Below, one piece after another: positions 44,915-58,269 of a DNA stretch of 64,000 bases; position 1 is the first letter of the stretch; the number at the start of each line of letters is the position of its first letter. The stretch is from contig OZ244561.1 in NCBI GenBank assembly GCA_965217585.1, positions 5,920,001-5,984,000 of the forward strand. The letters run 5' to 3'. Under the pieces are notes generated by a model. It saw only the letters and a list, made by a program, of their open reading frames with translations. It was not told the origin of the DNA and ran no database searches. Position numbers and translations under genes: made by a program. The stretch is from Candidatus Latescibacterota bacterium. GTDB lineage: Bacteria; Latescibacterota; UBA2968; UBA8231.

Positions 44915-45034
44915 TCGCGCCAAGAGGCCGAGTCCTGGTGCCAGCCCTGCGCCGTGCTGCCGGTGCCCAACTCGCCCAAGAGCTGACGCCGCACCGGGTC
45001 GCACCCCCGGCAAGACTTCCGGGGCTTGGTGCTC
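44915..45034 (-). repeat. Decayed direct copy of PhyH gene segments 62128-62168 and 62674-62755
   Basis: 44915-44955 matches 62128-62168 at 39/41; 44952-45034 matches 62674-62755 with a few mismatches and +1 nt; joined at CCGT microhomology. Confidence 0.9.
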
Positions 45035-45464
45035 AGGCTGGGGCCTCGGCCCGTTCCAGCAGCTTGGCGAAGTCGTAGTTGACGCTGGTGCCGCCAAAGT
45101 CGGGTTCGCGCTGGAAGGGGTGGCGCAAATAGCTAACGCAGTGCCTGCCGTCGTCCAAAAACTCTACTAGGGTGAGAATGAAGTCGTCGGGTTTATTGAG
45201 GCTGTAGAGAATTTCGTTTTTGGTCACCGTGATGGTCGCCGCCCCGCTTGCGCGGCCCTTGACCTCGATAAAGCGCAGCCGCCCCGTGCCGGGCACCCGC
45301 GACTCGATATCGTAGCCGAGTTTGTCAAACTCCCGATCCGTCGGCTCGTAGCCGAGGCTGCGTTCTACTTCCATGATAATAGCCCGCGCCCGTGCGGCAA
45401 CTTTCTGCGTATCCACAGGCGACCGACGTCCTGCCATGGTGTCTACCAGTCCCCGCGGCACCAC
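45033..45464 (-). pseudogene. DUF3883 (PD-(D/E)xK-like nuclease) C-terminal domain detached from the helicase
   Basis: GYDIES...FIEVKG...TKNE; same frame as 45522-48644, separated by the 81-bp insertion. Confidence 0.85.
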
Positions 45465-45467
45465 TAA

Positions 45468-45548
45468 TACCGATTTGACTTTTTAGTGTCCTAATTACCC
45501 TCTTCTCTTGGGGGAGACTTATTAGGACAGACGATTAGCAAAACGGTA
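45468..45548. mobile_element. 81-bp MITE-like insertion with a TAA/TTA target-site duplication
   Basis: TAA at 45465-67 and 45549-51; imperfect ~28-bp TIRs TACCGATTTG..TGTCCTAAT / TACCGTTTTG..TGTCCTAAT; AT-rich; removal restores GGLL-VVPRG. Confidence 0.88.
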
Positions 45549-55074: not shown

Positions 55075-55087
55075 CCCGTCGTTCTCC

Positions 55088-57973
55088 TTATCCCTCCCCG
55101 AACAGCCCGCCTTGTTCGAGCGGTCCCTCCTGCCGCTCCTTGTGCGCCAGATCGGCGATTTCGGGCCAGCTCTGTACTAGGCTGTTGTAGGAGAGGGCTT
55201 CGGCGGCGCGGCGTTTGCGTTCGCAGATGGTGTAGAGGCGGTAGGCCAGTTCGCGGGCGATGTCGGCTTTTGCGCCGAGTTGAGCCTCGACCCGTGCCGC
55301 TTCTGGTTCGCCGCCGGTTTCTAGGGCGCGGATGAGGTGGTGGACTGCTTCCCACACGGTGAGTCGGTCGTCGGTCGTTGGGTCCCAGTCGTCGGCTAAC
55401 TCGTCTGGGCGCAGCAGGCGCACCTTGCCGGCGCTGGAGGCGAGGATGCCGCCCTCGACGATGCCGGCGATGCTGGTGTTCTTGGCTTTGGACAGGGTTT
55501 CGGCGACGCCGTATTCGCCCTCGTCGAAGCCTTGCTGCTCGAACCACGCCAAGGCCCAGCGGCTGTCGGCGTCAAAGTCGCCTTCCTGCTCGGCGAGCAC
55601 TTCGTCGAGCATCTGGTTGATCAGCGCTAGGGCCTCGCGCACGGAGACGGGCTTGCCCTCGGCGTCGAGTATCTTGGCGTAGCGGGTGAACACGGCCATG
55701 CCGGGGCCGATGGCGGCTTGGGCGAGATCGACTGGGGCGATGTTGCCGGATTGCAGGTGGGCGAGGGCCGTGGGGAGCTCGGCTCTCAACGCGGCGACGA
55801 ATTCGCGGCGGGTGGCCATTGGCGCGGCGGCAGGGCGCTGGCGGCAGACGAGGACGATGCTGGAGGCGAGGGCAGCGAAGTTTTTCTTTAGGTTTCCGGT
55901 GTATTCGGTACGTATCGGCCAAGTGCCGGTGACGGAGAAACCTGACTCGATCACCGCAGCTAGGAAAGTCTCCCAGCCGGTGCTGGCTGTTCCGGTGTCA
56001 CCTTTGGTCTCGGACTGCTTAAACGCATAGTAGATGGTGACTGGATAGGCCGGATGCGACTGATTGGCGAGGCGACGCATCGCGTTCGTCATCCCGGCAA
56101 GAAAAAAGGTCTCTGCCTTTTCCTTGTTCCCATGCCGGTATGTAGTAGCGACCAATTCTTCAGCCTTCGGTACGGCAAGCGTAGCGAAAAGATCGGGATA
56201 GATCGACCGTAGCGCACGGCGCAGCCAGACGTAGAAGAAGTCGGAGAGGTCAGCGTAAGCAATGTTGTCGTAGTAGGGTGGATCGGTGGAGACAACTTTG
56301 GCCACACTAATTGATTGAGTGGCTGCATCCTTTTGAGACGCCGAACCACTAGTGCTCGCCCCAAGCAAAGCGATCATCTTCGCTGCTTGCTCTACACCAA
56401 GCAGGACATTGCCAGACGAGTCACTGAGGGGATTCGCCTCGGTATAGTCCCAAACCATCGGCAATGCTTGGCGTCCAAAGGTGGAGACCAGTTTCGCGGC
56501 GCCTGTATGCCAAGCACAGATGGACGACCAGTAGTTCGCTCCCTTATCGATGGCAAACGCCAAGTACACCCCCACCGCCTCCGCATATGCCGTCGCCTCA
56601 GTGCCCCCATCCCGCAAGGGCCACTCGTCATTGGGCAGAGCAGCGGTAGCAGCATCCCGCTCGATGCGCTCCATCGCTTCCGCTACCAAGTCGGAGAAGG
56701 TGGTCAGGGCGACCAGTTGGCGGGGGGTGAAGAGGTCGCCCAAATTGTTCAATCCATAGACAGGCCCCTGAAAATTGCGGTGCTTCTTTGGCAGCTCGCA
56801 ATCCGGCTTCCACGTCGGCTTCGCTTGGCGGGCAATTCCCTCGTGTTCCGGCATCGGCTCCAGATACACCCGCCCCCGGTCACCTTCGGCAACGACAGCC
56901 ATGAGCCGGTCGCCCATCCGTTTAGCCTTGCCCTCATTCCGAATATAGCCATAGGGAATAGGCACCCCCGACATCAGGCAACGGAACGCTTGCCGCTTTC
57001 CCGCGCTAGTCCCCGCCTTTGTCGCCTCCGCATCCTCCGGCGTTCCCACCTTCACCACAAACCGATATCCACGCCCCTCAAACACCGGCTCGACATACGC
57101 CTCCTTCCCCTTCTTGGTCGAAAGCATAAAAGTCGAGGCCAGCGGCACCTCCACATCGGCAAACGCCGGATTCGGGCTTCTCACCGTCCGCGCCCATAGC
57201 CACGCAATCACCGTCAGCTTGCGCCCCTTGTATCGTTCAAGATCGGGCCGCTCCCGCACCATCTCCTCGGTAATCTCAACCTGCGGATACAGATGCCCAA
57301 TGCGCCGCTTGGCCTCGTCGCGCATCCACTGGCCATAGTAGCGCACATCCTCGGCCAGCCCCTGCGCCCCCTTCCATTCGCGCTCGATCAGACTCCTTTC
57401 CTCGCGAGACGCCGGGTTCACCGGTGACTGACCGGCGAACTTCGGCGGTATCTCGATCATGGCCTTGTTGATGAGCACCGCCACCGGATTGAGGTCGCTG
57501 GCATGAGCTTCAAGCCCCAACCGCTGCGCTTCCAACGGCAAGGCACCGCCGCCAGCAAACGGATCGTGAAAGGCCGGCAGCTTGTCCGGGTCGAACAATT
57601 CGGCAGCACGCGGGTGGTCGGCATGGTCAGCGCAGGTCCGCCGCCAGCTCTTGCGAATTTCCTTCCGCGCCCGTTCCAGCACCTTCTCGTTCGTGGTGTT
57701 TTCCCACTTCACCAATTCTTCGATAAGTCGGAACAGCCGCTCGCGCTCCTTTTCCTGGTCGGCCTCCGTAGGAAACAGATCGGGATGCGCCGACGGATCA
57801 TCGACCATCTGCGCGAAAATCACCGCCCGCGCCGCGGCCAACGGCCGCCGCGCCCACCACAAATGCAGCGTACTCGGATGCCCGTGCCGAATCGACTTCT
57901 CCCGCGCCGCCGCGGCGTTAATCGCGTCGAGCGGCAGGGCGACTTCAATGAGCTTTTTGCGCGGAGGCGTCAT
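55088..57973 (-). CDS. DUF1156 adenine-specific DNA methyltransferase
   Basis: [27 protein letters not shown] (SAM), [15 protein letters not shown] (catalytic); uninterrupted. Confidence 0.93.
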
Positions 57974-58269
57974 GCGCAGACGGCTAAGAGTTTGCGGAAT
58001 GATTTGAATCGAGGATACTGTTTCCGATGCCGGACCTTCCATTCAATACGGCAGTAGGTGTTCAGATACTCACTGAGCACCATAGCGTCCATGATCAATT
58101 CGGCACCTACAGACTGCATGGATTTTAACCCGTTGCTATATTGCGCGAAGAATTTGCTCTTGCTTGTAGATGGCGGCGGATACAGGTAGAGCCACACGTT
58201 GGCATCGAGCAAGAACGTTTCGCCACAGCTAAACGAATAGGCCGCCAGATCGTGCGCCTTATTCTTCAT
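57970..58269 (-). pseudogene. Shortened PIN-domain protein of a HATPase-STAS-PIN triad
   Basis: FLLDANVW and VLSEYLN present; only 99 aa, later acidic PIN motifs absent; stop overlaps the methylase ATG. Confidence 0.7.

Follow-up and report, generated by a model that had tools for sequence, protein, structure and literature searches.

Restriction-modification systems can decay to orphan methyltransferases, the nuclease being lost and the modification gene kept. Hma, which passages of PMC12839542 equate with the DUF499-centred Type-1 BREX-related (BR) system, is a widespread modification-based defence system, reported there in 2446 taxa. According to the same passages, an HEPN domain is fused in 1370 of the 2446 Type-1 BR taxa and HEPN-less DUF499 ATPases are common as well (1076 of 2446, ~ 44%), and the helicase-nuclease is proposed to be the primary effector with HEPN as a backup suicide RNase. 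Embedded genes are given for 62.7% of Hma systems in passages of the literature on these loci. Experimental knowledge of Hma / Type-1 BR is thin: in the relevant passages of PMC11232893, phage defence is shown for HmaA only, using a Halomonas homologue, in which the catalytic residues of the NOV_C domain were essential for defence and from which a purified 142-aa C-terminal region nicked plasmid DNA alone. Here we describe an Hma locus in a 64,000-nt stretch of a Candidatus Latescibacterota bacterium genome (contig OZ244561.1, positions 5,920,001 to 5,984,000; hereafter the window), in which three predicted nuclease modules have been struck by separate, recent lesions and the rest of the island is intact. 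It is a tidy natural example of defence-system disarmament and not a new kind of system.

All coordinates are positions in the window, where the Hma locus (45033-58269) lies on the minus strand, as does every gene between 45033 and 61699. The PADLOC models HmaA, HmaB, and HmaC were all matched at E=0, and Pfam concurred with DUF1156, DUF499, SNF2-rel_dom/Helicase_C, and NOV_C (DUF3883). The hma genes form one cluster on one strand in the order hmaB methylase, embedded cargo of four genes, HEPN-hmaC ATPase, and hmaA helicase-nuclease, with a HATPase_c-STAS-PIN cassette upstream of hmaB and an ABC-ATPase pair further upstream. The island is an Hma / Type-1 BR system, a known kind, with which it shares the three core genes on one strand, the genes embedded between them, and, in its ancestral form, an HmaC bearing an N-terminal Swt1-type HEPN domain; it differs in that HmaA is split from NOV_C and the HEPN core is deleted. 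A single scan with HmaC gave 74 related loci, the closest of which are L001 (93%), L042 (92%), and L009 (88%), all three from Latescibacterota metagenome-assembled genomes and referred to below as the three closest loci.

The helicase gene, hmaA (45522-48644), matched the PADLOC HmaA profile at E=0 over positions 2-1021 of 1176, with Pfam SNF2-rel_dom and Helicase_C, and ends at residue 1040, at stops that lie within an insertion. Profile positions 1023-1172 of 1176 were matched instead by a separate open reading frame (ORF) of 143 aa (45033-45464), which encodes the detached NOV_C/DUF3883 nuclease of PD-(D/E)xK type (Pfam NOV_C E 3.6e-19). Both pieces of HmaA share one frame, with four in-frame stops between them, and alignment placed an 84-nt block at 45468-45551 that is missing from the three closest loci and whose position is the exact domain linker of HmaA. 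All 37 loci whose HmaA match was long run through the junction between helicase and NOV_C uninterrupted, even two (L004 and L051) in which hmaA shifts frame elsewhere, and NOV_C was fused in 111 of the best 120 HmaA protein hits; over residues 700-1040, the closest of them, P0001 (1173 aa, fused), is 98% identical. The helicase fused to NOV_C that characterizes HmaA is not found in the window, both parts being present but apart, and the locus is a broken member of Hma rather than a non-member. The detached DUF3883 ORF retains the catalytic D, ExK, and E (D...ExK...E), and ahead of GTG 45464 or ATG 45437, no Shine-Dalgarno-like sequence was found. Six other HmaA relatives among the best 120 (P0027, P0044, P0081, P0082, P0110, and P0119) end or shift frame inside NOV_C with the helicase whole, which could represent recurrent nuclease loss, or merely contig ends and sequencing errors.

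The insertion consists of an 81-nt element (45468-45548, TACCG...CGGTA, with no strand assigned) and a TTA duplication, the two TTA triplets lying at 45549-45551 and 45465-45467 where relatives have a single CTA; the site is empty in the three closest loci. The element has inverted ends of ~ 10 nt, TACCGTTTTG and CAAATCGGTA, and an inner 16-bp inverted repeat that can form a hairpin at 45487-45529; its DNA fold came to -11 kcal/mol (z -3.1), a value reached by 1 of 200 shuffles. Some insertion sequence (IS) families typically generate TA or TTA duplications. The sequence-only reading had named a miniature inverted-repeat transposable element (MITE) as the cause of the split, and the structure fits: the element shares with MITEs its short length, non-coding character, inverted ends, 3-nt TTA duplication, empty site in relatives, and strong hairpin. 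It differs from them in that one copy alone was seen in the 64-kb window, the 74 loci, and a plasmid collection. No second copy was found in the window by exact, 3-mismatch, inner-arm, or end-motif searches, in the 74 loci by a gapped end pattern or by blastn-short on window and loci, or in the plasmid collection, so that "MITE" is used here as a structural description and not as the name of a proven family. The 11-nt end motif had eight matches which, besides the element itself, were single ends with a mismatch, and no parent IS of the element was identified among the sequences searched.

The second lesion lies at the N-terminal end of the ATPase gene. The hmaC DUF499 core (48653-51592) matched the PADLOC HmaC profile at E=0 over positions 2-940 of 941 at residues 33-977, with Pfam DUF499 at E 9.6e-32 and a Walker A motif, GGGKTH, in the translation. 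Upstream of it, a 78-aa ORF (51631-51867) is a remnant of the HEPN_Swt1 N-terminus, matching Pfam profile positions 1-32 of 115 (E 4.2e-4). DNA alignment showed 124 nt missing at 51699/51700 that are present in L048 and the three closest loci, and this deletion puts the HEPN N-terminus (ATG 51867) and the HmaC frame out of register. From the original start at ATG 51867, 56 codons are kept before the frameshift, the frame then ending at 51631, and the HmaC frame, which is open to 51724, still holds the last 35 HEPN codons; in tblastn, the window's HEPN was split over two frames. The 41 lost codons end in ...IRDQRNK(W), and with them the Arg of RNKWAH (Rx4H motif) is gone. Intact relatives match the HEPN_Swt1 profile over positions 1-115 of 115 at E 4e-35, with RNKWAH; the HEPN domain of the window is incomplete. 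HEPN was uninterrupted in 70 of 70 loci holding the upstream DNA (three further loci start at a contig edge and one is cut) and was present in 119 of the best 120 HmaC protein hits, the exception being a 617-aa fragment; the closest of these 120 is 99% identical. In what remains of the HmaC frame, translation could first start at ATG 51592, which has GAGG 8 nt upstream and stands 32 residues ahead of the start of the PADLOC HmaC profile. Given that HEPN-less DUF499 ATPases are common in nature, the HmaC core may still be made and working.

The third lesion is in the PIN gene of the cassette upstream of hmaB. Its remnant, a 99-aa ORF (57970-58269), is identical at 99 of 99 positions to residues 1-93 plus 178-183 of the 183-aa protein P0241, and DNA comparison with L042 showed a 252-nt in-frame deletion at 57991/57992 that drops residues 94-177 of 183. 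The four acidic residues of a PIN domain are accordingly incomplete in the remnant: two of the four acidic motifs, DFND and TNDxD, are gone, and LLDAN and LSEY are retained. With Pfam PIN, the remnant scored 16.1 bits over profile positions 2-59 of 120 (cut-off 23.6), compared to 31-39 bits for full-length relatives. The PIN gene beside hmaB is full length in all three other loci that have it (L042, L014, and L057; 183-185 aa, above the Pfam cut-off), and in a search limited to proteins of at least 175 aa, all 106 significant hits were 181-201 aa long, shorter forms lying outside its scope. The deletion leaves in place the gene's last six codons, together with the ATGA in which it overlaps the likely start of hmaB at 57973. 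Far from the island, at 7380-7910, the window has a further PIN-domain gene of 176 aa, apparently complete.

All three lesions are private to this sequence in DNA alignments with three to four relatives. The corresponding parts are intact in the closest proteins, at 98% (HmaA), 99% (HmaC), and 100% (PIN) identity, and among the 120, 120, and 106 protein hits, no second genome with the same lesions was found, the PIN set covering the long forms described above. To estimate how old the lesions are, private residues were scored against 66 close full-length HmaA and 93 HmaC proteins. Only one was found in 1031 helicase residues and three in 979 of the HmaC core, and the damaged parts carry hardly any (DUF3883, 2/143; HEPN remnants, 0/91; PIN remnant, 0/99). 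Because the remnants hold almost no private substitutions, the lesions must be very recent. The excess of private residues in DUF3883 over the helicase (Fisher p 0.04) is a hint only, since the same rate is reached by 8 of 66 relatives. On the window branch, the ratio of nonsynonymous to synonymous changes (pN/pS) was 0.09 for HmaC, 0.10 for the HmaA helicase, 0.26 for DUF3883 (10 nonsynonymous, 13 synonymous), and 0.18-0.32 for conserved blocks of HmaB, and values on the relatives' own branches were similar, indicating purifying selection on all cores in the period before the lesions. As the comparators are ~ 10% diverged in DNA and the lesions are too young, these values neither date the lesions nor judge evolution after them, and pN/pS was dropped as a test of domestication because the branch predates the lesions.

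Every other island gene is full length compared to profiles or homologues, which amounts to ~ 15 kb of other coding sequence with no lesion, and the three nuclease modules make up 8-10% of the ancestral island. With lesions placed uniformly, all three would strike these modules with a probability of 5e-4 to 1e-3; this figure is post hoc, the pattern having been picked after it was seen. These results bear out in every detail the observation made from the DNA alone, namely a DUF499/DUF1156/SNF2-nuclease locus (of a type that passages of PMC12839542 treat as restriction-like and BREX-related) with three separate lesions, all in predicted nuclease modules and each now seen to be real against close relatives: a DUF3883 domain severed from its helicase, a HEPN domain deleted and frameshifted off DUF499, and a shortened PIN gene. 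The long open frames ascribed to the methylase, the ATPase core, and the helicase core were confirmed by the ORFs and PADLOC, and the relatives at 98-100% protein identity, in which all three parts are whole, do not share the splits. The dN/dS comparison that had been proposed gave purifying selection on the cores and, as stated above, does not reach the period after the lesions.

The modification gene, hmaB (55088-57973), matched the PADLOC HmaB profile at E=0 in one stretch (positions 8-958 of 967), with Pfam DUF1156 at E 4e-33. The longest ORF (55088-58042) starts at 58042, ATG 57973 being the likely start. With its frame intact and the DPFAGGG and DPPY motifs in its translation, HmaB is predicted to be an N6-adenine-type DNA methyltransferase.

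The sequence-only reading went further and proposed a methylation-only module, possibly domesticated for epigenetic or self-marking use. The first part of this goes too far. The detached DUF3883 ORF keeps its catalytic residues, and the island also retains, all of them undamaged, a candidate RNase of Schlafen type, the PDC-M45 cassette, and the pair formed by the AAA_15 ATPase and its neighbour. All four embedded genes are full length against profiles or homologues. The first of them (53845-55074) combines a Schlafen/AlbA_2 domain (Pfam SLFN_AlbA_2 E 4.9e-16) with HATPase_c_4 (E 3.1e-14), has sequence matches to SLFN8, SLFN14, and SLFN11 chains, and is full length compared to L005, L036, and L004; it is a candidate RNase effector. 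Passages of PMC12839542 describe proteins joining a Schlafen-RNase, a minimal histidine kinase, and a winged helix-turn-helix as RNase effectors that adjoin BREX/BR loci, and the protein here shares with them AlbA_2 and HATPase_c_4 and sits inside the hma operon. The other three are PDC-M45A (DuOB; 53129-53860; Pfam DuOB E 2.8e-67; PADLOC E 7.5e-91, profile 4-225 of 230), PDC-M45B (DUF488; 52483-53154; PADLOC E 2.2e-82, profile 3-201 of 204, with Pfam DUF488), and PDC-M45C (DUF488; 52049-52486; PADLOC E 6.5e-76, profile 1-144 of 145), which together make up the complete three-gene cassette of a candidate system found at the same position in L015 and L029; a literature search on DUF488/DuOB gave only unrelated DuoBody and Candida papers.

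The reading we lean towards is a real and recent loss of three costly effectors that was probably selected, with the modification gene and its partners retained, caught at an early stage. Mechanistically, the 81-nt MITE-like insertion has severed the NOV_C nickase from the helicase, the HEPN RNase core has been deleted and frameshifted, and the catalytic half of PIN has been deleted in frame. The Hma restriction arm and the two predicted RNase effectors, HEPN and PIN, would thereby be disabled. HmaB would stay translationally coupled via the preserved ATGA overlap and might go on methylating, HmaC could restart at ATG 51592 without HEPN, and the helicase core and embedded cargo would remain usable. 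Costly or self-toxic effectors would then go first and the modification gene would be kept, as in restriction-modification decay, and the locus would stand at an early stage rather than being a long-standing domesticated module. Like restriction-modification decay, the locus pairs an intact modification gene with a loss of nuclease function, which we infer here from the lesions; it differs in that three modules of different folds (PD-(D/E)xK, HEPN, and PIN) were struck at about the same time, in that methylation has no link to two of them, both predicted RNases, and in that the ATPase and helicase are retained. Among the titles and abstract openings listed in a literature search on orphan methyltransferases, BREX, and pseudogenes, there was no account of Hma decay.

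Several observations weigh against this reading. The detached DUF3883 ORF could still be made, and activity in trans is conceivable as the isolated C-terminal region of Halomonas HmaA nicks DNA; the HEPN deletion may not harm the core system, HEPN-less DUF499 ATPases being common; and the Schlafen/AlbA_2 protein, also of a predicted nuclease type, was spared. The probability figure is based on three events, the DUF3883 excess is weak, and pN/pS does not see events this young. Finally, the methylase activity of HmaB and its protective role are putative, and in one test, in passages of PMC11232893, T4 infectivity was unchanged after growth with HmaB and HmaB had no effect on phage escape. Some of these points would fit an island in which nothing was disarmed, with the helicase and free NOV_C acting as two subunits, a HEPN-less HmaC of a natural type such as is found in ~ 44% of Type-1 BR taxa (passages of PMC12839542), and only an accessory PIN lost. 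The intact D, ExK, and E, the nicking activity of the isolated region in vitro (passages of PMC11232893), and a restart codon with GAGG upstream just ahead of the HmaC profile are all consistent with this. Nevertheless, the junction was split in none of the 37 loci and in none of the six truncated proteins inspected, neither possible start of the free nuclease is preceded by a Shine-Dalgarno-like sequence, and the passages of the literature on HmaA report no defence by an untethered nuclease, and we therefore consider this explanation unlikely. An artefact of mis-assembly, or of a consensus over mixed strains, is more improbable still. The related records are metagenome-assembled genomes, which leaves some room for it, but sequencing errors do not typically take the form of a 252-nt deletion exactly in frame, a 124-nt deletion, or an 84-nt insertion that has inverted ends and duplicates its target, and to either side of each lesion the DNA is collinear with that of relatives.

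The most serious competitor is neutral early decay: with the island dispensable, three structural mutations would have struck nuclease modules by chance, without selection for disarmament. The lesions are very recent and offer no further pattern to test, scattered hmaA frame changes occur among relatives as well (L004, L051, P0027, P0044, P0081, P0082, P0110, and P0119), and the Schlafen-type effector was spared. Set against this are the small share of the island that the struck modules occupy, with p ~ 1e-3 for three of three, the ~ 15 kb of other coding sequence with no lesion, and a PIN deletion by which neither the reading frame nor the ATGA coupling with hmaB was disturbed; we think a selected pattern more likely than a random one, and neutral decay appears to us a lesser, though by no means negligible, possibility. 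Long-term domestication, with a nuclease-free module kept for epigenetic or self-marking functions, is the least probable explanation, and we give it hardly any weight. As it would predict, methylase, ATPase, and helicase all have intact frames and a window-branch pN/pS well below 1, but this branch long predates the lesions, the parts damaged here are whole in relatives at 98-100% identity, decay is not seen in the remnants, and no other genome among the protein hits, short PIN forms being outside the listing, has the same lesions. The domesticated state that had been suggested thus finds no support, and the alternative offered beside it, an early stage of decay, fits the intact relatives and the near-zero number of private residues; early decay or selected disarmament fits the data.

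A bolder version of selected disarmament is that the three lesions are not a coincidence but a rapid, selection-driven "detoxification" of the whole island, which we raise tentatively and regard as rather doubtful. In a period so short that neighbouring genes acquired hardly any substitutions, one lineage would have lost a DNA nickase, a HEPN RNase, and a PIN RNase from two different modules, with each mutation sparing adjacent non-nuclease expression (the ATGA coupling, the HmaC restart codon, and the linker site in HmaA). If true, the nucleases of co-located systems would share a cost, for example through a common trigger or cross-activation, and islands could switch fast from a killing to a marking or sensing state. 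The locus illustrates, outside classical restriction-modification, in what sequence the parts of a modification-based defence are lost. It also provides a natural allele set, with close relatives intact and one genome lacking exactly the nuclease parts, and these are ready-made constructs for asking what the methylase, ATPase, and helicase do without nuclease, whether HEPN is a backup suicide effector, and what the effectors cost the host.

The PIN remnant is the last gene of a cassette whose first two genes are a HATPase_c protein resembling anti-sigma kinases (58634-59506; Pfam HATPase_c E 4.2e-4, below cut-off; L014 match over residues 1-289 of 290) and a DUF4325 STAS-like protein (58259-58615; Pfam DUF4325 E 3.6e-14; full length compared to L014 and L057) whose stop overlaps the PIN start. 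The cassette, which looks like a three-gene module of partner-switching type, stands directly upstream of hmaB in 4 of 75 sequences (window 57970-59506; L042:3988-5554; L014:4998-6779; L057:2337-4103), with overlapping stops and starts throughout, including the ATGA into hmaB. In L042, the HATPase_c gene (L042:3988-4635) is shortened at its 5′ end, its 215-aa product aligning with residues 88-290 of the 290 in the window's protein, and relatives therefore bear lesions of their own in this cassette. Upstream of it, the first gene of the island encodes an AAA_15/AAA_21 ABC-type ATPase resembling PD-T4-4_A and PDC-M47A (60161-61699; Pfam AAA_15 E 4.7e-21; PADLOC PD-T4-4_A E 3e-37), which is missing from that slot in L042 and has a near full-length homologue in L007. 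A 155-aa ORF overlapping its stop (59697-60164), probably its partner, matched PDC-M47B weakly (E 1.6e-4) and gave neither a Pfam family at E<=0.1 nor a homologue in the 74 loci.

Within hmaB, the middle (56296-56666) has no DNA similarity to the three closest loci, and both flanks are 85-87% identical to them. This segment is probably the target-recognition part, in which case specificity would differ between these close relatives; the methylation role of HmaB itself is predicted from its sequence. In L042 (L042:5551-9237), an IS200-like Y1 transposase domain (Y1_Tnp) is inserted in frame in the variable middle, at residues 581-656, and HmaB of L009 (L009:1261-2091) and L041 (L041:1144-1875) also carries Y1_Tnp, which is not present in the window or in L001. 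Y1_Tnp-bearing HmaB is ~ 245 aa longer (1228 vs 984 aa).

Outside the island, the window is an ordinary piece of chromosome that carries dnaK, grpE, bipA, deaD, transporters, and numerous genes of the PhyH family. Rfam at gathering threshold and a tRNA search each gave zero matches in the whole window, which accordingly holds no RNA gene or tRNA attachment site by these searches, and a promoter and terminator scan of the island gave counts not above shuffles, which were not used. Two ORFs, 51714-52145 (143 aa) and 44654-45097 (147 aa), were rejected as spurious, having no family match and overlapping real features. L042 is collinear with the window flanks on both sides of the island at ~ 90% DNA identity, which puts the island at the same chromosomal position in both. 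Between hmaB and hmaC, the window and the three closest loci have DNA unrelated to one another, and this fits the published view, in the passages cited above, of Hma as a hotspot for embedded defence genes. The order hmaB-hmaC-hmaA is common to the window and the three closest loci; most other loci have hmaA upstream of the other two genes.

At the island edge (44915-45034, minus strand), two short copies of pieces of PhyH genes from the opposite island end begin directly after the last island gene, one of 83 nt, 93% identical to 62674-62755, and one of 41 nt, 95% identical to 62128-62168. Their sources are the two PhyH genes flanking the other end, and the island is therefore bracketed by partial direct repeats. 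In L042, the island occupies the same slot, but the additional 2.8 kb of PhyH genes is not there. With seven genes of the PhyH family (phytanoyl-CoA dioxygenase-like; 3473-4282, 8989-9804, 41710-42552, 42620-43498, 43485-44354, 61755-62861, and 62573-63451) in its 64 kb, the window shows an unusual local expansion, which also frames the island. Among the related loci, L004 has a second HEPN-type N-terminus (L004:21046-21444) ~ 11 kb downstream of the first, and L005 has additional partial HmaA and HEPN matches (L005:14102-14871), which suggests that another Hma system, or fragments of one, lies close by in these loci.

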